From a virus, in IMG/VR virus record IMGVR_UViG_3300020040_000015, positions 1 to 6,311 of that record: 6,311 bases of DNA, one strand, 5' to 3'. Below the pieces are notes generated by a model. It was given only the letters and a program-made list of their open reading frames with translations. It searched no databases and was not told the origin of the DNA. Positions within the stretch are counted from its first letter, which is position 1, and each line of letters opens with the position of its first letter. Shown here in pieces: positions 1 to 6,311 of the stretch. A program made the position numbers and the translations under genes.

Positions 1-75
1 ATAGTCAATGAATCCATATTTTGCAATTCTTTTTGGCGTTGAGTGTACAGCGCGAAGAACTCGAGCAATCGCAAT
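1..75. repeat. Terminal redundancy, copy 1 of 2. It is identical to 6237-6311 and marks a circular genome or assembly overlap.
   Basis: Base-by-base comparison shows atagtcaatgaatccatattttgcaattctttttggcgttgagtgtacagcgcgaagaactcgagcaatcgcaat at both window ends. A minus-strand ORF reads through the junction in frame. Confidence 0.95.
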
Positions 76-1149
76 ACTATCGTCATTGCGAGCAGACGAG
101 AATCGGGGCAATAAGGTACGGATATACGACATGGGTGGAGTTGACCGAACACTGACTCCGTTGAAATTATAGATTCTTCCATTAACGACAGAATCGATTT
201 TTTGCTCAATCTGCGCATAAGGGTCCTCACCTTCCACGAAATCACAACCTTTCTCAAAGAATCCGAGAGATGCTCTCGAGCGGGGTCTAAACGCGCGGCA
301 TGAACGATATAATAAGGGAGCAGAACTAAGGCTATTAACGTAACTCGAAACGTATGAAGAAGCCCCACCTCGGGCAATCTGGAAATCTGAACGACCGAAT
401 TTCCAACTCTTATCGTGACAGTATCGTAATACCTCTGAGACTTCTTTCGAGTTTGTGAATAATAAGATATGATAATGCGGACGGAAATGGACAGGGCCGT
501 ACTCACCGACAGCGTAGAAATGTAACGTCTCATAAGAACCTAATTGTTTATATAAATATTTACGTAATCTTTTAATATAGTTCTGAACATCAACATAGTT
601 TAAAAAGGGAATAAGGTTATCACAACCATATTGTTCAGAAGCGGGATAATCCGTTTTGTCAACCGATTGCGTCTTATAGATAAAATTACGAATAGCAGCC
701 ATACTGAGAAACCAATTATCTCTAACAGGAATATATTCCTTAATCGCACGGTCAAACGGCACTGTGCCTTGTACTTGCTCGAAGAATATATGACGCAACG
801 CGGAGTCATCATCACATTGATATTCGGAAACAGGGATATATTTATGACGTTCATCACCAAAATGGATATCCCCTGAGATACCTACAACGTCCTCATATTC
901 ACTATGCAGAACTTTACAATTAAACAGAGGAATATGTTCGTTATCATACGTAAGCGTCACAAAATAAGAATACTTAAAAGCACTTCCAGCGGTCTTCACA
1001 CGCATGGACGCCTTTTTAGCACGCTTATGAATACAATAATCACATTGACCACAATCTACGGCAATGCGTGCACCAGTGTAACGATTAGTAATAAACGAAC
1101 GATACTGACAATGATCAGTCGCTTTCAATAAATCAGGAGAAAATTTCAT
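1..1149 (-). CDS. VP4: Replication initiation protein (Microviridae VP4 / protein A-like HUH endonuclease), N-terminal 383 codons. The ORF runs off the window edge and continues at 6236 on the circle.
   Basis: My own translation from the ATG at 1149..1147 gives MKFSPDLLKATDHCQYRSFITNRYTGARIAVDCGQCDYCIHKRAKK...FVTLTYD...EYGPVHFRPHYHILLF...GGASSYVSSYVNS...AKYGFIDY, with no stop down to base 1. It contains a Cys cluster (CGQCDYC), motif I (FVTLTY, aa 63-68), HUH motif II (HYH at nt 469-477) and a YxxxY catalytic pair (Y266/Y270, nt 340-354). The supplied ORF track does not list it, apparently because it has no in-window stop. Confidence 0.93.
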   Translation of the reverse strand, partial: MKFSPDLLKATDHCQYRSFITNRYTGARIAVDCGQCDYCIHKRAKKASMRVKTAGSAFKYSYFVTLTYDNEHIPLFNCKVLHSEYEDVVGISGDIHFGDERHKYIPVSEYQCDDDSALRHIFFEQVQGTVPFDRAIKEYIPVRDNWFLSMAAIRNFIYKTQSVDKTDYPASEQYGCDNLIPFLNYVDVQNYIKRLRKYLYKQLGSYETLHFYAVGEYGPVHFRPHYHILLFTNSKEVSEVLRYCHDKSWKFGRSDFQIARGGASSYVSSYVNSLSSAPLLYRSCRAFRPRSRASLGFFEKGCDFVEGEDPYAQIEQKIDSVVNGRIYNFNGVSVRSTPPMSYIRTLLPRFSSARNDDSIAIARVLRAVHSTPKRIAKYGFIDY

Positions 1150-1151
1150 AA

Positions 1152-1460
1152 TTATTTACGTTTATCAATCACTTGATGACGGTTACGCCTACCAAATGAA
1201 ATATGAATAAATGTAGGATATAATATTAGCTGATCAAATACATGAACATTGTCTGAATAACTATGAATATGTTCAAGTAATCGACCATAAGTAGTAGAGC
1301 CATAAGGTTTAATATCAATAACCTCTCCAAACAGATGCTGCGAATTAGAAACACCACCGGCAGCCTTATTTTCAGCAACAGAACGTTTAGCGCTTGTTAT
1401 CGTAAAATGCAAATTAAAACATAACAGATGCTCAAGAAAATCCATAAGAGTAGAATTCAT
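1152..1460 (-). CDS. Zinc D-Ala-D-Ala-carboxypeptidase-like cell-wall peptidase (Peptidase_M15_3-like), a putative endolysin.
   Basis: The 102-aa ORF contains ITSAKRSVAENKAAGGVSNSQHLFGEVIDI, which fits the family pattern S-x-x-R-S-x-x-x-N-x-x-x-GG-x-x-x-S-x-H-x-x-G-x-x-x-D. A downstream FIHISF could supply the third metal ligand (the fvHvD position). Its ATG (1460..1458) overlaps the upstream stop as ATGA, and its stop lies 2 nt before the rep ATG. The family assignment is from remembered motifs, not a search. Confidence 0.72.
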   Translation of the reverse strand: MNSTLMDFLEHLLCFNLHFTITSAKRSVAENKAAGGVSNSQHLFGEVIDIKPYGSTTYGRLLEHIHSYSDNVHVFDQLILYPTFIHISFGRRNRHQVIDKRK

Positions 1461-1540
1461 AAGCCAATAGCATTAAGGACATAACCCAAGGCAGCAGACA
1501 CAGCGCCAATTATAATTTTCCAAATATTACTACTTTTCAT
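1457..1540 (-). CDS. Small membrane peptide of 27 aa with a single Gly/Ala/Ser-rich hydrophobic helix. It is a candidate holin-like or signal-anchor element coupled to the peptidase.
   Basis: The ATG at 1540..1538 gives MKSSNIWKIIIGAVSAALGYVLNAIGL. It has Lys at positions 2 and 8, followed by 19 uncharged residues. Its TGA (1459..1457) overlaps the peptidase ATG. The track shows a 74-aa version from a GTG/ATG at 1681/1678, but that would lie almost wholly inside the 64-aa ORF in another frame, so the true start is uncertain. Confidence 0.45.
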   Translation of the reverse strand: MKSSNIWKIIIGAVSAALGYVLNAIGL

Positions 1541-1724
1541 CACTCTGAGATTTAAGTTCAACAAAATTATTTTCCTCTTTAATCGAATCCACAATGACAA
1601 TAAGACCCAGCGAAGAAACTCGCTCAGAATAATCTCCAAGGCCATCGAGAGAATTGACAATATAAGGCGAAATAACATCACGACCAGTGTTTTTGTCTTT
1701 AACTGAAATAATAAACTTTTGCAT
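1530..1724 (-). CDS. Hypothetical protein of 64 aa and unknown function. It is the first gene after the predicted promoter.
   Basis: The ATG at 1724..1722 lies 51 nt downstream of a TAtaTTTG box. The composition is balanced and hydrophilic (MQKFIISVKDKNTGRDVISPYIVNSLDGLGDYSERV...SQSDEK). It ends with TAG at 1530-1532, overlapping the start of the small membrane peptide by 11 nt. I recognise no motif. Confidence 0.55.
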   Translation of the reverse strand: MQKFIISVKDKNTGRDVISPYIVNSLDGLGDYSERVSSLGLIVIVDSIKEENNFVELKSQSDEK

Positions 1725-1775
1725 AATTATAAAAATTTTAAAGGGTTAATAATAGTTGTAACTTCTAACTGGGGG

Positions 1776-1806
1776 CAAATATACAGATTATTTTTATCAA
1801 ACCAAA
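1776..1806 (-). promoter_or_regulatory. Candidate Bacteroidota-type promoter with a -33 TTTG, a 19-nt spacer and a -7 TAtaTTTG.
   Basis: The minus strand reads cTTTTGgtttgataaaaataatctgTATATTTGccc. The -7 box is the complement of 1776-1783 and the -33 TTTG is the complement of 1803-1806, separated by 19 nt. This matches the published Bacteroides consensus (TTTG / TAnnTTTG). It is followed by the ORF64, peptide, peptidase and rep genes. Confidence 0.5.
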
Positions 1807-1874
1807 AGAAAACTGTTTTTTTTTAGATTCTACCATAGAGTGTGAGTTGTGCGTTTATAGACAAGAGATAGGAG

Positions 1875-1897
1875 AATTCGAGAGGATAACTCGAATT
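1875..1897. repeat. Perfect 8-bp inverted repeat forming a stem-loop with a 7-nt loop.
   Basis: The arm aattcgag (1875-1882) pairs with ctcgaatt (1890-1897) around the loop aggataa (1883-1889). It is nested inside an imperfect helix of tgtgcg (1848-1853) with cgcaca (1903-1908), extended by agt (1845-1847) with act (1911-1913) after a 2-nt bulge. Confidence 0.65.
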
Positions 1898-1963
1898 TGC
1901 TTCGCACACAACTAGGGGCTTCGCTTAATTAACAAGTGGATGTATACAGAGGTGTATAGGCAC

Positions 1964-1986
1964 GGCAAGGCAGAAACTGTCTTGCC
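1964..1986. repeat. 10-bp inverted repeat forming a stem-loop.
   Basis: The arm ggcaaggcag (1964-1973) pairs with ctgtcttgcc (1977-1986) around the loop aaa. There are nine Watson-Crick pairs and one G:T on the plus strand, which becomes an A:C mismatch on the minus strand. Confidence 0.65.
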
Positions 1987-2127
1987 TTTGCGCACCTACG
2001 TGCTAAAATACCGAAGCGGAACGCTTCTCTAAGGAAGTCGCTCCGCTCCATATTTCGATCAGGCCCTACGCGGGCGGCGGGTGTATATCGCTCAAACGCC
2101 GCGATGGGCTTTTAGTCCTGAAGAATG

Positions 2128-2295
2128 CTACCTAACAATCGGCTCTTTTTTATATGATTGTTTAGGAATTATACGATAAGTATAAATAGGATTAGACTCA
2201 AACTTAGAAATCCATTTAAAAGCATCATCCATAGAGTTAACACGCAATGAAAATACAACTTTACGTCCTTCTGTAATTCTTAATTCGTAATACAT
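2128..2295 (-). CDS. Hypothetical small protein of 55 aa. It falls below the ORF-track length cutoff.
   Basis: My own translation from the ATG at 2295..2293 gives MYYELRITEGRKVVFSLRVNSMDDAFKWISKFESNPIYTYRIIPKQSYKKEPIVR, ending with TAG at 2128-2130. An in-frame TAA lies 5 codons upstream of the ATG. The composition is protein-like, and a TAtaTTTG box sits 26 nt upstream. Confidence 0.5.
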   Translation of the reverse strand: MYYELRITEGRKVVFSLRVNSMDDAFKWISKFESNPIYTYRIIPKQSYKKEPIVR

Positions 2296-2321
2296 AATAT
2301 ATCTGTTTTAGTTTCACATTA

Positions 2322-2355
2322 CAAATATACGAAATAGTTTGCAAAGTACAACAAA
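2322..2355 (-). promoter_or_regulatory. Candidate Bacteroidota-type promoter with a -7 TAtaTTTG but suboptimal -33 spacing.
   Basis: The minus strand reads cTTTGttgtacTTTGcaaactatttcgTATATTTGtaatg. The -7 box is the complement of 2322-2329. TTTG elements lie 12 nt (2342-2345) and 22 nt (2352-2355) upstream. The octamer is identical to the one at 1776-1783. Confidence 0.35.
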
Positions 2356-2377
2356 GTTGGAGTTAAAAAGTATTAAT

Positions 2378-3493
2378 TTATCTACGGCCAATACTATTGC
2401 CAACACCTTGAAAAACACGAGTACCATAATCAAGAGCATTACGCAATTCATAAGAATTAACGTCCTTCTGTTTCTGTTTGGAACTCCACTTATAATAATC
2501 ACGCAAGGCTTTTTCTTTAGAATACTCCATATTCTTAAGAACATTCGTATTCTTAGAATCCCATAATGAACCTAAACCACGAGCACGATTAGACTGAATA
2601 TTTGCATAAATCAAAGAATCAGCAGTCTGAGAAGCAATCCTATTGTTGATACGAATACCGTTCGTTTCAGCAGCAGTCTTTACAGCCTGTGCCATTTGAT
2701 TTTTATACTGGGCTTCAGAAAGAGCACCTTGGGCATACAAATTAGCCAAAGTCTGACCTTTAATAAACAAGTCAGCTTGTTGTTGTTCATCAAGGTACTT
2801 ATTAAGTACCTGTTGGGCTTCAGAATCAAGAAGAATCTGTGATTCTTGGGCCGATGTAAGACGACCTGCAAACTCCATATTCTTAAGTTCCTGATACTCC
2901 TTAGACTGATCTAATAAAGCAGAACGTCTACCAGTAGAAGCATTCCAATAGCCAGACTGGCCGACACCGATATTACGATAATTGGTATCACCAAGAATCT
3001 GATTAATACGGTAGGGGGTAAGAGCAGCATTTTGTTCCGCATTCATCATCGAAGCACGAGCCTGAGCCATAGAAGCAAGAGCAGTACCAACATCCGAAAA
3101 ATCAGGACGGAATGCCTGTAAACTAGGAGCGGGAGAAGCGGAAGCAGCAGCACCACCAGAAGCGGGAGACTTAGAGCCAGCCATAGCGGCAGAACCTTGA
3201 ACAAACGGGTTTAAACCACGAGAAATCATCGCATTAGGAGAATTATAAGAATTATTCATTCCCCACATTTTCTCGTGCCAATCACGTTGAATTTGAGCTT
3301 GCTGAGCATTAAATGCATTATTTTCACGGTTAATATCAATACTAGTCTGGTTGGTCTTATTCTGTGAAGAAGCGCCAATAGCATTACCAGCAAGTGAAGC
3401 ACCAGCAGCAATAACGCCACCAAGAACAAGCGGAGCAATATGCTTTTCGGAAAGCCCCATTAAGGGGCTTTCTCCAATATCATAGAACCTCAT
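2378..3493 (-). CDS. VP2: Minor capsid / DNA pilot protein (VP2 / protein H-like).
   Basis: This is a 371-aa ORF. It has an N-terminal Gly/Ala-rich hydrophobic segment (LVLGGVIAAGASLAGNAIGASS), an Ala/Ser/Gly-rich low-complexity stretch, then a Gln/Ala-rich region that looks helical. Size, composition and position next to the capsid genes fit microvirus pilot proteins. The ATG (3493..3491) overlaps the upstream TGA as ATGA. Function is assigned from composition and synteny, not from a motif. Confidence 0.72.
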   Translation of the reverse strand: MRFYDIGESPLMGLSEKHIAPLVLGGVIAAGASLAGNAIGASSQNKTNQTSIDINRENNAFNAQQAQIQRDWHEKMWGMNNSYNSPNAMISRGLNPFVQGSAAMAGSKSPASGGAAASASPAPSLQAFRPDFSDVGTALASMAQARASMMNAEQNAALTPYRINQILGDTNYRNIGVGQSGYWNASTGRRSALLDQSKEYQELKNMEFAGRLTSAQESQILLDSEAQQVLNKYLDEQQQADLFIKGQTLANLYAQGALSEAQYKNQMAQAVKTAAETNGIRINNRIASQTADSLIYANIQSNRARGLGSLWDSKNTNVLKNMEYSKEKALRDYYKWSSKQKQKDVNSYELRNALDYGTRVFQGVGNSIGRR

Positions 3494-3933
3494 TGAACAG
3501 AAGCGTCAGGGGCGGGCGATGGATCGGGCGCTGACTGTTGCTCTGCCAACATTTCCTGAGCGAACTTAGTAAGTTCAGACTTCTCACTAGCCAATTGTTG
3601 AAGAACAGCCTGTCGTTCCGACATCGTCTGACAATGTCGGGAAATAACACAAGCGAATCGTTCCTCATCAGTCATGCCATCCATAACAGTAGACTGAGTA
3701 GGGTGCATCTGGGCAAGGATGTTCTGAACGTTCATATCACCAAGGAGACGACGATATTTTTCTTGATTCAGCAGAATCTGAGTCATATCAGCTTGAATCA
3801 AATCACCGTCTGAAGTTTCATCGTACATGACTGAATCATATACAGATTGCTGATAACACGGATTATCCTCAACCAATTCGGGGATAACCTCATTTTTAAT
3901 ATAATCGGGATTTTTATAAGCAAAACTTCTCAT
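3490..3933 (-). CDS. Hypothetical protein, possibly an internal scaffolding protein (VP3-like by size and position).
   Basis: The track ORF (3490..3942) begins at a TTG. The first ATG is at 3933..3931 and gives a 147-aa product (MRSFAYKNPDYIKNEVIPELVEDNP...). The protein is acidic, has a Pro/Ala/Ser tail and sits between the capsid and pilot genes. No diagnostic motif was recognised. Confidence 0.6.
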   Translation of the reverse strand: MRSFAYKNPDYIKNEVIPELVEDNPCYQQSVYDSVMYDETSDGDLIQADMTQILLNQEKYRRLLGDMNVQNILAQMHPTQSTVMDGMTDEERFACVISRHCQTMSERQAVLQQLASEKSELTKFAQEMLAEQQSAPDPSPAPDASVQ

Positions 3934-3944
3934 AATAAACAAAA

Positions 3945-5687
3945 TTAATAAGGTAAACCATTACGATCCAAATTCTGCACAGCATACACTTGGAAATTAA
4001 CATTACACAGTAATTGATCGAATGCAACAGAACAATTGGCAGAATCGATCTGAGGAACAAATATAGAGTTTAACTGTTGAGGACGAACCTTCATGGACTG
4101 ATAAGACCAAGCACCAGCGGAAGTAAGAACTTGCCAACCATCAAGAGGAGCAGCCCAAGACTGATAAGCAGCACCAGCACGGAATCCAGCGTGGACAGTA
4201 TCAATATTAGATTTCCACTGCCAGTAGCGTAGATTATAACCTAAAGCACCAGAAACATTACGGCCAGGATTATTTTGAAGATTAAGAGCAGGAACAGACT
4301 GCATACCAAGCTGGTCAAACGCAGGCTGGGGGAAGTCAGAAATAGCAGTCACAGTCAGCTGAGGAGCCTGTCCTGTCAAATTCCAATCCAACATAGGTAC
4401 AGCATGGTAAACACACATAATTATCTGATGTTCAGCACCACAATCATAAGTAAGAGTATGGCCAGAGTTACTAGAGATACCTTTACCAGCAATAGATGCC
4501 TGAGAAGTATCAGTATCGAGATTAGTATTAACAACCTCATTGATATTGATTACACTAGACCAACCTCCGATATAATGTGCATGATTGCCCATATATTCGG
4601 GAGCCTTAATACCAAACTGAGCAGCCATCTGATCTGAATAATCCTTGCTAGAAAATTGAACTACTTCCTTCCAACGTTGAAGATATTCGGTGGCACGGAT
4701 TGAGAGGGCAGAGAGGTCAGTATTGACGCGAAGCAGTCTATCAGAACTAGTAGAGTTAGCTGAAGTTGTTTGCACAGTATTACCGCCAGAAAGATTACGA
4801 ACAGATGAATTACTAATACCATCAGTAGCACGAGCAAGAATAACATTAGACGCAACAGTTTTATCAAGAGGTTGGAGGAATGCTACTGAACCATACTGAG
4901 AAGAGGGTAACATACCCATGAAATAATCCTTAGGATAATTGGCGTAGCGCAACTGAACCATATCCGTAACCAATCCAATATTACCAGTACCAGACCAATA
5001 GTCTACATTATAAGCATAAGCTTTATGTTTCTCCCATTGACTATTGCTGAAAAAGTCATAATAAATCTTCTGATACGCAAGGAATGGAAGAGCATTAACT
5101 GTCTGTGAAACCTGATAAACCAAGGGGTTGGCAGCGTCACCAAGATTATCAACGCCTAGATATTTCTTAGTAATAGCAGCCTTACCTGTATTAGAACTAG
5201 AAATCATAGAGCCATAACCAAGCAAATCAAGCAACTTACAGGAACCGTAGACAATAGGGAGGCCAGCATCATCACGGGTATTAGTCTGGTCACCAGCATT
5301 AGCTGTCTGAAGAAATAGACTAATAATCTGTTGGGAAACATTAGGTACAGAAGTAAGCGCAGAGGTATTCGCAGTAGAACTAGCAGCACTAGTCATATAA
5401 TCCGTCATCTGAGTAAATGCCTGCGGAAGCGCACGGGAAATCAGACGCAACGGCACAGCATAGAAATCATAATACTCCTTAATACGAGTATAAGCGGCTG
5501 TATTTACCGGAACAGTACGCGTAAACCAGTCAGAAGAAATACGATACTTAGTATCGGGAATAGCAATCTGCCAATAACAAGGAAGGATCTCACCAACCTT
5601 GGCTGTAAACAATTTTTTCGAACTTAAATCGAAAGAAGACCGATGGGTAGAAATTTTAACTCGGTCTAAAGGATTAAAATCACTCAT
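3945..5687 (-). CDS. VP1: Major capsid protein (Microviridae VP1 / protein F family).
   Basis: This is a 580-aa ORF with an ATG at 5687..5685 and a TAA at 3945-3947. Its N-terminus (SSFDLSSKKLFTAKVGEILPCYWQIAIPDTKYRISSDWFTRTVPVNTAAYTRIKEYYDFYAVPLRLI) follows the characteristic F/VP1 pattern. That pattern is FDLS...G.L.P, then a short hydrophobic stretch, then PGD/PDT, then a Y/F-F-VP-R-L block. It is the largest ORF, as expected for a microvirus. Confidence 0.95.
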   Translation of the reverse strand: MSDFNPLDRVKISTHRSSFDLSSKKLFTAKVGEILPCYWQIAIPDTKYRISSDWFTRTVPVNTAAYTRIKEYYDFYAVPLRLISRALPQAFTQMTDYMTSAASSTANTSALTSVPNVSQQIISLFLQTANAGDQTNTRDDAGLPIVYGSCKLLDLLGYGSMISSSNTGKAAITKKYLGVDNLGDAANPLVYQVSQTVNALPFLAYQKIYYDFFSNSQWEKHKAYAYNVDYWSGTGNIGLVTDMVQLRYANYPKDYFMGMLPSSQYGSVAFLQPLDKTVASNVILARATDGISNSSVRNLSGGNTVQTTSANSTSSDRLLRVNTDLSALSIRATEYLQRWKEVVQFSSKDYSDQMAAQFGIKAPEYMGNHAHYIGGWSSVININEVVNTNLDTDTSQASIAGKGISSNSGHTLTYDCGAEHQIIMCVYHAVPMLDWNLTGQAPQLTVTAISDFPQPAFDQLGMQSVPALNLQNNPGRNVSGALGYNLRYWQWKSNIDTVHAGFRAGAAYQSWAAPLDGWQVLTSAGAWSYQSMKVRPQQLNSIFVPQIDSANCSVAFDQLLCNVNFQVYAVQNLDRNGLPY

Positions 5688-5705
5688 AATTAATTAATAT
5701 TTAAA

Positions 5706-6311
5706 TTAAACCATACGGTTGAAAACACCATTAGCGTCATTAAGCTTTTTATGCTTAATCATATCACGACAGTATGTCGCACTACGGTGCCGGAGTTGTT
5801 CAAGGAGTTGAGACGTTTCACTTAAAACATTCTGCAAGACATCAATTTCCTGCCCGTTCTGAGGCAACACAAACATACAATCTGATATTTCTGGGTTAGC
5901 GGATCGTATGTTGAATGCATCTCGTAGACTTTCATAATCCTTTTTCTTCTCATATTCTATACCTTTTCTAAGAATAAATAAAATACGATTGGTGTAAGAA
6001 CTAAGATCGCAACCGAAGTCAGGCAAATGCCAATTACGGAAGAACTTATAGACATATAAGAACAAACGGTATAACCGGTCAACATAACGTTCAATATCAA
6101 CATCACTAGAACAGTTAACAAACCTAGTAAGACACCGAGAAGTATGTAATATAATTTTGTCATCATCAGTAAGAATAGAATTAGCTTTAAGATATTGATA
6201 ATAAGTACGAACAAGGCTCAAGACTGAATCCTGTCCATAGTCAATGAATCCATATTTTGCAATTCTTTTTGGCGTTGAGTGTACAGCGCGAAGAACTCGA
6301 GCAATCGCAAT
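5706..6311 (-). CDS. VP4: Replication initiation protein, C-terminal part. The unique portion is 5706..6236 (176 aa plus stop), and 6237..6311 repeats codons already counted in 1..75.
   Basis: The frame is open from the window edge (6311) down to the TAA at 5706-5708. The offsets 6311-6236=75 and 6236-6221=15 are both multiples of 3, so it is in phase with the 1..1149 ORF. The track's 171-aa ORF starts at an internal TTG (6221) and is a truncation. The junction reads ...KYGFIDY|GQDSVLSLVRTYYQYLK.... Confidence 0.85.
   Translation of the reverse strand: MAIARVLRAVHSTPKRIAKYGFIDYGQDSVLSLVRTYYQYLKANSILTDDDKIILHTSRCLTRFVNCSSDVDIERYVDRLYRLFLYVYKFFRNWHLPDFGCDLSSYTNRILFILRKGIEYEKKKDYESLRDAFNIRSANPEISDCMFVLPQNGQEIDVLQNVLSETSQLLEQLRHRSATYCRDMIKHKKLNDANGVFNRMV
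6237..6311. repeat. Terminal redundancy, copy 2 of 2. It duplicates 1-75, so the unique genome is 1..6236.
   Basis: This is the same 75-nt string as 1-75. It lies inside the rep reading frame, so it is not a biological terminal repeat. Confidence 0.95.

Follow-up and report, generated by a model that had tools for sequence, protein, structure and literature searches.

The non-coding island at about positions 1838–2125 of the IMG/VR virus record IMGVR_UViG_3300020040_000015 is best read as a composite control region of a Bacteroidales-type (Alpavirinae-like) microvirus. We analysed positions 1 to 6,311 of this record (the window, 6,311 nt), which amount to one complete circular microvirus genome (6,236 nt) plus a terminal overlap of 75 nt (1–75 = 6237–6311). 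The island is built around a core module, 5D, whose covarying pairs describe a three-way junction and a further mini-hairpin. We give even chances to the reading that it is an origin signal for the complementary strand, carried on the viral single-stranded DNA (ssDNA), together with a transcription terminator and clade-specific accessory hairpins. Every gene of the window is carried by its minus strand and the packaged strand of Microviridae has the same sense as the genes; the viral ssDNA therefore corresponds to the window minus strand.

An initial annotation of the window, made from the letters alone, had pointed to a GC-rich, multi-hairpin island in the only large non-coding region, and this description holds. 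The gap at 1725–2127, between the start of the open reading frame (ORF) ORF64 (1724) and the stop codon of ORF55 (2128), is the largest of the genome, and the G+C content is 0.68 over 2061–2110 and 0.50 over 1840–2113, compared with 0.39 genome-wide. Measured against 200 dinucleotide shuffles, the island folds better on both strands with RNA and with DNA parameters (z = −3.68, −3.91, −4.54 and −3.68), folding of the viral strand as DNA giving z −4.5. The boundaries are slightly wider than the proposed 1840–2113, conservation giving about 1838–2125.

Conservation and structure of the core module

Module 5D, the 5′ 95 nt of the island, is found in the window clade and in distant clades. Its features are the following.

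1838–1933, minus strand: core module 5D, a three-way junction, then one extra mini-hairpin
1845–1851 with 1907–1913, minus strand: helix P1, which closes the junction and shows covariation
1852–1873, minus strand: single-stranded junction with GACAAG (1860–1865; CTTGTC on the viral strand), then a purine-rich spacer
1874–1882 with 1890–1898, minus strand: hairpin P2, a perfect inverted repeat
1898–1900 with 1904–1906, minus strand: mini-hairpin P3, TGC-GAA-GCA on the viral strand, containing GCGAAGC
1917–1925 (pairs 1918–1919 with 1923–1924), minus strand: mini-hairpin P4, (A)GC-GAA-GC(C) on the viral strand, the second GCGAAGC

The island is present in 34 GenBank phage records at 72–90% identity (blastn), the same number of records (34) that encode a capsid protein at least 60% identical, and it is kept in all relatives examined. 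Three pattern scans and a capsid-based scan of IMG/VR added more than 130 microvirus contigs, each about 6 kb long, in which it is present. Large contigs that matched the scan patterns, including two large viral contigs found with a 17-mer (L024 and L036), were set aside as chance hits. Alignments of the close relatives show invariant single-stranded blocks between helices that are rich in compensatory changes. In particular, P1 is Watson-Crick at every pair in 129–130 of 130 window-clade sequences, with switches among GC, CG, AT and TA. Three of the stems initially proposed, at 1875–1897, at 1845–1851/1907–1913 and at 2013–2027, gain compensatory changes in relatives; a 10-bp stem placed at 1964–1986 does so in its outer seven pairs only (1964–1970/1980–1986).

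The next capsid relatives of the window phage are only 36–39% identical. They share its gene order and have a non-coding gap of 175–575 nt downstream of the pilot gene, which holds an element of the same architecture with different helix sequences; the two sides of P1, for example, read GAGTTTGC/GCAAACTC or CACTTATC/GATAAGTG there. Covariance model R1, for which only window-clade sequences were used, matched 46 of 60 distant genomes and a second model (R2) matched 59 of 71 further ones, those missed being mainly partial contigs, a more distant capsid group (about 37–39% identity to L200) and the G4 negative control. All matches lie opposite the capsid-gene strand apart from one, a duplicate in L275. 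In this contig of 7.8 kb each end has a copy of the core, the two being oppositely oriented (191–289, minus; 7472–7570, plus), probably through an assembly artefact of a circular genome. Found in clades with capsid identities of 36–50% and always downstream of the pilot-protein gene, 5D is kept across highly divergent phage proteins, and recognition by host machinery is therefore indicated.

The distant cores were aligned with the covariance models, a MAFFT alignment of them being out of register. Alignments A5 and A6 were fitted to the model structure, so that their pair counts are biased in its favour. Paired cells make up 96.3% of A5 and 97.4% of A6, and 19 of 21 and 17 of 21 pairs, respectively, show compensatory changes. 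When the 3′ partner was slid by 1–3 columns the paired cells came to 27–54% (A5) and 29–50% (A6), and none of 500 shuffles of either alignment reached the observed covariation score. Across the family 7–8 of the 9 pairs of P2 covary, while its 7-nt loop is conserved (AGGATAA, or TTATCCT on the viral strand; family consensus TTAYCYY), and GACAAG in the junction is kept at 70–90% or more in the family consensus of A5. On this comparative sequence evidence we regard the structure of 5D as established beyond reasonable doubt.

Coding capacity does not account for this conservation. The frame of a 40-codon ORF noted initially is not kept: the ORF is intact in 15 of 130 relatives, and the length of the homologous stretch modulo 3 is 0, 2 and 1 in 53, 47 and 30 sequences, respectively. 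These out-of-frame length changes led us to reject the island as a protein-coding gene. GenBank annotates a 108-aa hypothetical protein over the island in Dulem virus 242 (L003, PP511392.1, 650–976), which is probably spurious because the reading frame is not kept among relatives; ORF calls in the island region should be treated with caution by annotators. The initial annotation had recognised no RNA family in the island, and there is no Rfam match in it at E ≤ 10 (4227 models), nor in five relatives at E ≤ 1; a search of the window for tRNA and tmRNA genes found none.

Loop signature, strand and proposed function

P3 and P4 carry C-GNA-G and C-GNNA-G loops, a signature that is found on the packaged strand only. 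On that strand the window has GCGAAGC twice (the reverse complement of 1899–1905 and of 1918–1924). Among 127 unique window-clade copies the loop of P3 is a triloop (GNA) in 106 and a tetraloop (GNNA) in 13 (GAAA 11, GTAA 2); its closing pair is always C-G in this clade and the next pair alternates among GC, CG and AT. P4 is GCGNAGC in 127 of 127 copies (GAA 121, GGA 6). The distant clades have C-GNA-G for P3 in 41 of 45 copies (CCGAAGG 29, CCGGAGG 5, GCGAAGC 3, others) and GNA for P4 in about 40 of 45, with covarying stems such as GAC-GAA-GTC and GGT-GAA-ACC. Thus G and A of the loop are fixed and N is free (GAA, GGA, GTA, GCA), the closing C-G never flips and its stem neighbours covary; 172 unique homologues obey the GNA/GNNA rules and retain C-G as the closing pair.

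DNA mini-hairpins of the GCGNAGC and GCGNNAGC types have been described as "extraordinarily stable", and only GNA loops work. Their RNA versions are far less stable (melting temperature 39 vs 76.5 °C for GCGAAAGC), the DNA forms bind single-stranded DNA-binding protein (SSB) poorly, and they are found at the complementary-strand origins of G4, St-1 and alpha3, at RSF1010 ssiA (CCGAAGG) and in the N4 hairpin promoters (PMC13037366). A further report describes their dependence on the closing pair (PMC3201870). As far as sequence can tell, P3 and P4 follow exactly the rules of these DNA mini-hairpins.

The pairing of the helices bears on the same question. RNA families typically have G·U at several percent of their pairs. 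Here G·U occupies 12 of 915 cells in A5 and 9 of 1190 in A6, about 1%, and the transition-type covariations at 1994:2001 and 2014:2026 show almost no G·T intermediates; given these scarce wobble pairs, DNA hairpins fit better than RNA. Counted for strand assignment, G·U and A·C each amount to about 1–2% of cells, and helix ends together with a single unproven long-range helix account for an apparent plus-strand excess of G·U. On the plus strand, P3 and P4 would have U-N-C triloops, for which we know of no role.

We propose that 5D acts on the incoming ssDNA. The injected genome would be coated by host SSB, and 5D would remain folded on the packaged strand as a three-way junction (P1, P2 and P3) with P4 as a fourth small hairpin, P3 and P4 being C-GNA-G mini-hairpins expected to be unusually stable and to bind SSB poorly. 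The folded core would display fixed single-stranded motifs, with CTTGTC at the junction, TTAYCYY as the loop of P2 and, further on, TATACACC. These could be read by a priming enzyme of the host, be it primase, RNA polymerase or PriA, which would begin the complementary strand and convert ssDNA to the replicative form (RF). Hairpins P5, P6, P8 and P9, described below, may be clade-specific accessory parts of the same signal. The exclusion of SSB, the candidate priming enzymes and the origin function itself are what we infer from the sequence patterns.

A complementary-strand origin had also been the conservative reading of the initial annotation. It is partly supported and is the best-supported explanation after testing, because the C-GNA-G/C-GNNA-G loops occur on the packaged strand only, the covariation is nearly pure Watson-Crick and the core is kept across very divergent microviruses. 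The non-coding RNA (ncRNA) or 3′ untranslated region (UTR) that had been offered beside it fares less well: Rfam gives no match, G·U is very rare and a sense-strand terminator lies upstream of the core in some relatives, which would put the core outside the sense transcript if the terminator is efficient.

Several points weigh against the origin signal. Standard energy models fold 5D as DNA with a z of only −2.6. With about 290 nt, nested helices and long invariant single strands, the island is more elaborate than known microvirus complementary-strand origins and resembles large structured RNAs, and it shares no sequence homology with the origin of G4, in whose genome R1 matches nothing at E ≤ 10. 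On the plus strand the distant-clade P3 (CCCTNCGGG) could also be taken for an RNA tetraloop, c(UNCG)g; P4 of every clade and the window-clade P3 could not. Positions 2110–2112, which vary almost only between T and C (130 sequences; one A at 2111), could face GGG at 1915–1917 as G·U/G-C pairs on the window plus strand, and are the single feature that speaks for that strand. Finally, 5D could instead be the viral-strand (+) origin.

In this last case, which we think unlikely, Rep, an HUH endonuclease, would nick and religate at a CTTGTC junction held open by the hairpins, as a cruciform in supercoiled RF, and the region might even hold both origins. The nick sites of phiX174 gpA and of pC194-type Reps are CTTG^ATA, which CTTGTC, the only family-invariant junction motif on the viral strand, resembles; Watson-Crick-only covariation would suit DNA or a cruciform, and no phiX-like CTTGATA is conserved elsewhere in the genomes. 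However, the likeness comes down to a 4-mer, the motif is CTCG in some members, and a phiX174-type 30-nt origin (CAACTTG^ATATTAATAAC-like, with an AT-rich spacer) was not found, the junction having CTTGTC only. A site for the phage's own Rep would moreover be expected to drift with Rep, whereas loops and junction are kept at 36% capsid identity, and the GNA mini-hairpins documented so far belong to priming sites and not to sites nicked by Rep. CTTGATA does occur in the window, as a single copy within CTCTTGATAAAA inside the capsid gene (about 4862–4873, minus strand), and is like the phiX174/pC194 CTTG^ATA; its position is not conserved among relatives and we rejected it as an alternative (+) origin.

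We hold it quite improbable that the island encodes a structured ncRNA of about 290 nt (a 290–350 nt region) on the plus strand, antisense to all phage genes and of a new class with a regulatory or anti-host role, which would give Microviridae their first described ncRNA gene and their first antisense transcription unit. The consensus fold is slightly better on the plus strand (−152.9 vs −138.6 on the minus strand), a candidate long-range helix, ACTAGGGGCT/GGGCYYYTAGT, has T or C at its variable positions opposite G, and the distant-clade P3 fits c(UNCG)g; large structured RNAs typically have a multi-helix layout, long invariant single strands and optional expansion hairpins, as the island does. 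Yet P4 of all clades and the window-clade P3 would fit only T-N-C triloops and not UNCG, G·U is confined to about 1% of paired cells, and the long-range partner is missing in the type-B genomes described below, which retain ACTAGGGGCT. Moreover, the plus strand has no TAnnTTTG box upstream of 1838 and yielded no terminator, the wobble pairs of the optional hairpin and of the terminator hairpins lie on the minus strand, and a match in Rfam is absent. Antisense genes are almost unknown in Microviridae (PMC3394797).

The 3′ region, module exchange and genome context

Downstream of the core in window coordinates, the island continues as follows.

1926–1950: variable linker, deleted in some relatives and an optional-hairpin insertion site in others (alignment A2, columns 101–175)
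1951–1963, minus strand: conserved single-stranded motif GGTGTATAGGCAC with the first constant octamer copy, near-invariant in 42 non-redundant copies
1964–1970 with 1980–1986, minus strand: hairpin P5 (1968:1982 GC 64, AT 64; 1969:1981 GC 122, AT 8)
1992–1995 with 2000–2003, minus strand: hairpin P6, GCAC/GTGC (1994:2001 AT 102, GC 28, no wobble)
2003–2049, minus strand: predicted sense-strand intrinsic terminator, GAAGCG-TTC-CGCTTC or the longer GGAGCGGAGCG-A-CTTC...GAAG-CGTTCCGCTTC, then GGTATTTTAG
2013–2018 with 2022–2027, minus strand: hairpin P7 (2014:2026 GC 76, AT 49)
2015–2020 with 2042–2047, minus strand: competing pairing, in which 2019:2043 covaries
2063–2066 with 2072–2075, minus strand: hairpin P8, GCCC/GGGC with loop TACGC (2064:2074 CG 124, GC 4, AT 1; 2066:2072 CG 126, TA 4)
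2076–2086, minus strand: highly conserved single-stranded GGCGGGTGTAT with the second octamer copy
2087–2091 with 2101–2105, minus strand: hairpin P9, ATCGC/GCGAT (2090:2102 GC 111, AT 13, CG 6)
2106–2125, minus strand: conserved tail GGGCYYYTAGTCCTGAAG, adjoining the stop codon of the upstream gene

The segment 2003–2049 is best read as a predicted terminator of the upstream structural-gene transcript. GAAGCGTTCCGCTTC followed by GGTATTTTAG is the only terminator-like site within 1650–2400; it has the form of a Rho-independent terminator, with a GC-rich hairpin whose stem covaries and a T-tract behind it on the sense strand, directly after a gene, and in the long form wobble pairs are confined to the minus strand. 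The initial annotation had seen agcgga/tccgct as a pairing that competes with P7, and relatives back it, 2019:2043 being G-C in 118 sequences and A-T in 4. On the gene strand P7 can be extended to a hairpin of about 15 bp that takes in this pairing, and both covary because the extended hairpin absorbs both. Type-B relatives have a functionally equivalent minus-strand terminator hairpin of different sequence in the same place. Since the terminator precedes 5D in type B and the next promoter box lies beyond 5D, the core sits between sense-strand transcription signals.

These signals also bear on the idea that the island works as sense RNA, in which case the capsid-scaffold-pilot (and ORF55) transcript would end in a structured 3′ UTR with its terminator and might give rise to a stable 3′-derived RNA. 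The sole terminator-like site does lie inside the island on the minus strand, the long form wobbles there only, P3 with a GAAA loop would, as RNA, form a GNRA tetraloop, and in 5D plus-strand A·C cells (minus-strand G·U) are slightly commoner than plus-strand G·U cells (19 vs 12 of 915). But the terminator precedes 5D, P5 and P6 in the window clade and precedes 5D in type B, the C-G-closed GAA/GGA/GTA triloops are a DNA motif that is much weaker in RNA, and wobble pairs are far rarer than is usual in RNA. We rate the sense RNA as no more plausible than the antisense one.

One stem of the initial annotation fails. A long stem combining gcggcg/cgccgc with gccc/gggc (2063–2109) is contradicted by A·C at 2076:2100 in 13 sequences and G·A at 2079:2097 in 14; the stems that covary within this interval are GCCC/GGGC (2063–2066/2072–2075) and ATCGC/GCGAT (2087–2091/2101–2105). 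That annotation had also overlooked that the element is modular and has an intrinsic terminator in its middle. The octamer it reported, ggtgtata, is present at 1951–1958 and 2080–2087 and was found again in distant clades, where GGGGTATAGC occupies the same relative position as the 1951–1963 motif and AGGTGTATAACC represents the second octamer motif. The stretch 2076–2086 is invariant in alignment A2, whose sequences were gathered by a 17-mer spanning it, while sequences gathered by other patterns vary there (G2076 is A in 13 of 130). Written as GGTGTATA (TATACACC on the viral strand), the octamer is kept twice per element even at 36% capsid identity (L197/L198) and is unpaired in the supported helices of the window clade; it may be a dimeric host-factor site or a pair of start sites. 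A hairpin between GTATAC (1942–1947) and GTGTAT (1952–1957) was rejected, as it shows no covariation and lies partly in the variable linker that some relatives lack.

The core combines with different partner modules, which makes the element modular. Type A is the arrangement of the window. Type B (L122, L129, L142) has 5D and then a different hairpin, which carries wobble pairs and a T-tract on the gene strand and was called a terminator by the scanner, and L113 has 5D with the P7 module only. L009 (3600–3760) and L135 (2985–3160) have an extra module of some 140 nt (…GGCGRTAAGGTTTAGGTTAAAAAAATAGGGGAAGACAACAAGTGAGTC…) inserted behind the core. The island region thus seems to exchange modules through recombination. 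Some relatives also have an optional hairpin of 30–45 nt, TCCTAGATCC-ATTACTAAT-AGATCTAGGA, inserted after window position 1933 or so (L008:1785–2119, L041:2663–2999, L048:2814–3147). In several copies its mismatches are G·T wobbles on the viral strand only, and it may be a mobile mini-insertion.

Copies outside free phage genomes were also sought. Across one genome each of 185,579 species a conserved 21-mer of the island hit a single contig, which matches neither the element profile nor R1, and on this ground we rejected host-derived sequence and prophage copies. A search for integrated relatives through close capsid homologues yielded, apart from contigs about 6 kb long, just tandem dimers and a probable chimera. 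L306 (ENA vOTU_07226, 14,089 nt) has two tandem genome copies and a truncated capsid gene of 332 aa joined to TauE-like bacterial genes; it arose either as a chimera during assembly or through an unusual integration event within the capsid gene. A XerC/D-type (dif-like) attachment site in the island, maybe folded in ssDNA as in CTXphi, would be in keeping with Bacteroidales microvirus proviruses, whose att lies upstream of Rep in the same VP2-Rep interval and some of which have a second dif-like site reminiscent of CTXphi (PMC3091885), but we consider it very unlikely, given that the best dif-like 28-mer of the window (XerC arm, 6-bp spacer, XerD arm) scores 20/27, which does not exceed shuffles (mean 20.3, maximum 22), and lies outside the island, that the helices are at most 10 bp and not a 28-bp folded site, that the 21-mer hit just the one bacterial genome and that a recombination site would leave 21 covarying pairs unaccounted for.

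The genes of the window, whose identities are backed by annotated relatives and precomputed Pfam hits, and the promoter box flanking the island are arranged as follows.

1149 and on through the circle junction, minus strand: Rep
1460–1152, minus strand: M15-type peptidase
1724–1530, minus strand: ORF64
1776–1783, minus strand: promoter box TATATTTG, Bacteroidetes-type −7, for the ORF64-peptidase-Rep genes; flank, outside the element
2295–2128, minus strand: ORF55
3493–2378, minus strand: pilot protein
3942–3490, minus strand: scaffold protein
5687–3945, minus strand: capsid protein

Eight of the nine TAnnTTTG matches in the window are on the minus strand, two of them just upstream of ORF64 and ORF55. 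These boxes, the gene order and the peptidase point to an Alpavirinae-like phage, with an inferred Bacteroidales host (PMC3394797, PMC3091885). The two promoter-like boxes said to flank the island are indeed there, as Bacteroidetes-type TATATTTG on the gene strand (1783–1776 and 2329–2322). The former is kept as TAnnTTTG in most sequences of alignment A1 and in L198, and reads TTCCTTTG in Dulem viruses 242 and 254. The latter is ORF55's own box and lies within a near-repeat of the box region 1776–1794. ORF55 is absent from MG945488 and MG945572, where the island adjoins the pilot-protein gene directly, and looks like a small gene cassette of recent gain or loss.

Comparison with known systems

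The island offers a concrete, sequence-defined candidate priming signal beyond the phiX174/G4 group, common to several deep clades of Bacteroidales-type microviruses. Microviruses are among the commonest viruses of the mammalian gut, and the mutable features of the element (two GNA mini-hairpins, the CTTGTC junction and the TTAYCYY loop) make the priming mechanism in Bacteroidota directly testable. If the origin signal is real, the reported link between mini-hairpins and replication origins would extend to a new host phylum. The covariance model also provides a nucleotide marker with which such genomes can be recognised and oriented.

In size, multi-helix architecture, invariant single strands and optional expansion hairpins, the island is similar to large structured ncRNAs from phages and gut bacteria such as GOLLD, ROOL and raiA. 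It differs from them in that it has no Rfam match, wobble pairs are near-absent and the loops fit DNA on the opposite strand. Conserved intergenic hairpins with compensatory substitutions have been described in reekeekee- and roodoodoo-microviruses and tentatively taken as a negative-strand initiation site (PMC9865509). Those hairpins are single, 13–64 nt long and belong to unrelated clades, whereas the island is a multi-helix element of 95 to about 290 nt in several deep clades.

Further parallels exist among folded ssDNA signals that recruit a priming system, such as RSF1010 ssiA/ssiB and the phiX174 PriA primosome assembly site. The ssiA mini-hairpin, CCGAAGG, is the commonest P3 heptamer of the distant clades (29 of 45). 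However, ssiA depends on RepB′, a primase that the plasmid encodes, and phiX174 on PriA, and beyond the mini-hairpin neither has sequence homology with the island. The complementary-strand origins (oric) of the Bullavirinae G4, St-1, alpha3 and phiK are likewise GC-rich hairpin clusters in an intergenic region on the packaged strand of a microvirus, and they have mini-hairpins of the GCG(N)NAGC type (PMC13037366); in G4, GGCGAAAGCC at 3976–3985 adjoins the annotated origin in the GC-rich intergenic region. As is proposed for the island, they would remain free of SSB and mark the priming site. The G4 site lies between F and G and consists of three tandem hairpins, in contrast to the island, which follows the pilot gene, has a three-way junction and a second mini-hairpin, and is found in phages of probably Bacteroidales hosts. 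By this comparison the island is an analogue of the oric of G4, St-1 and alpha3 and not a member of that type. No description of the element was found in the literature searched, and it is absent from Rfam. Its kind is already known, that of a single-strand initiation signal; its form, a three-way junction with two GNA mini-hairpins and a modular 3′ region carried by Bacteroidales-type microviruses, is new.

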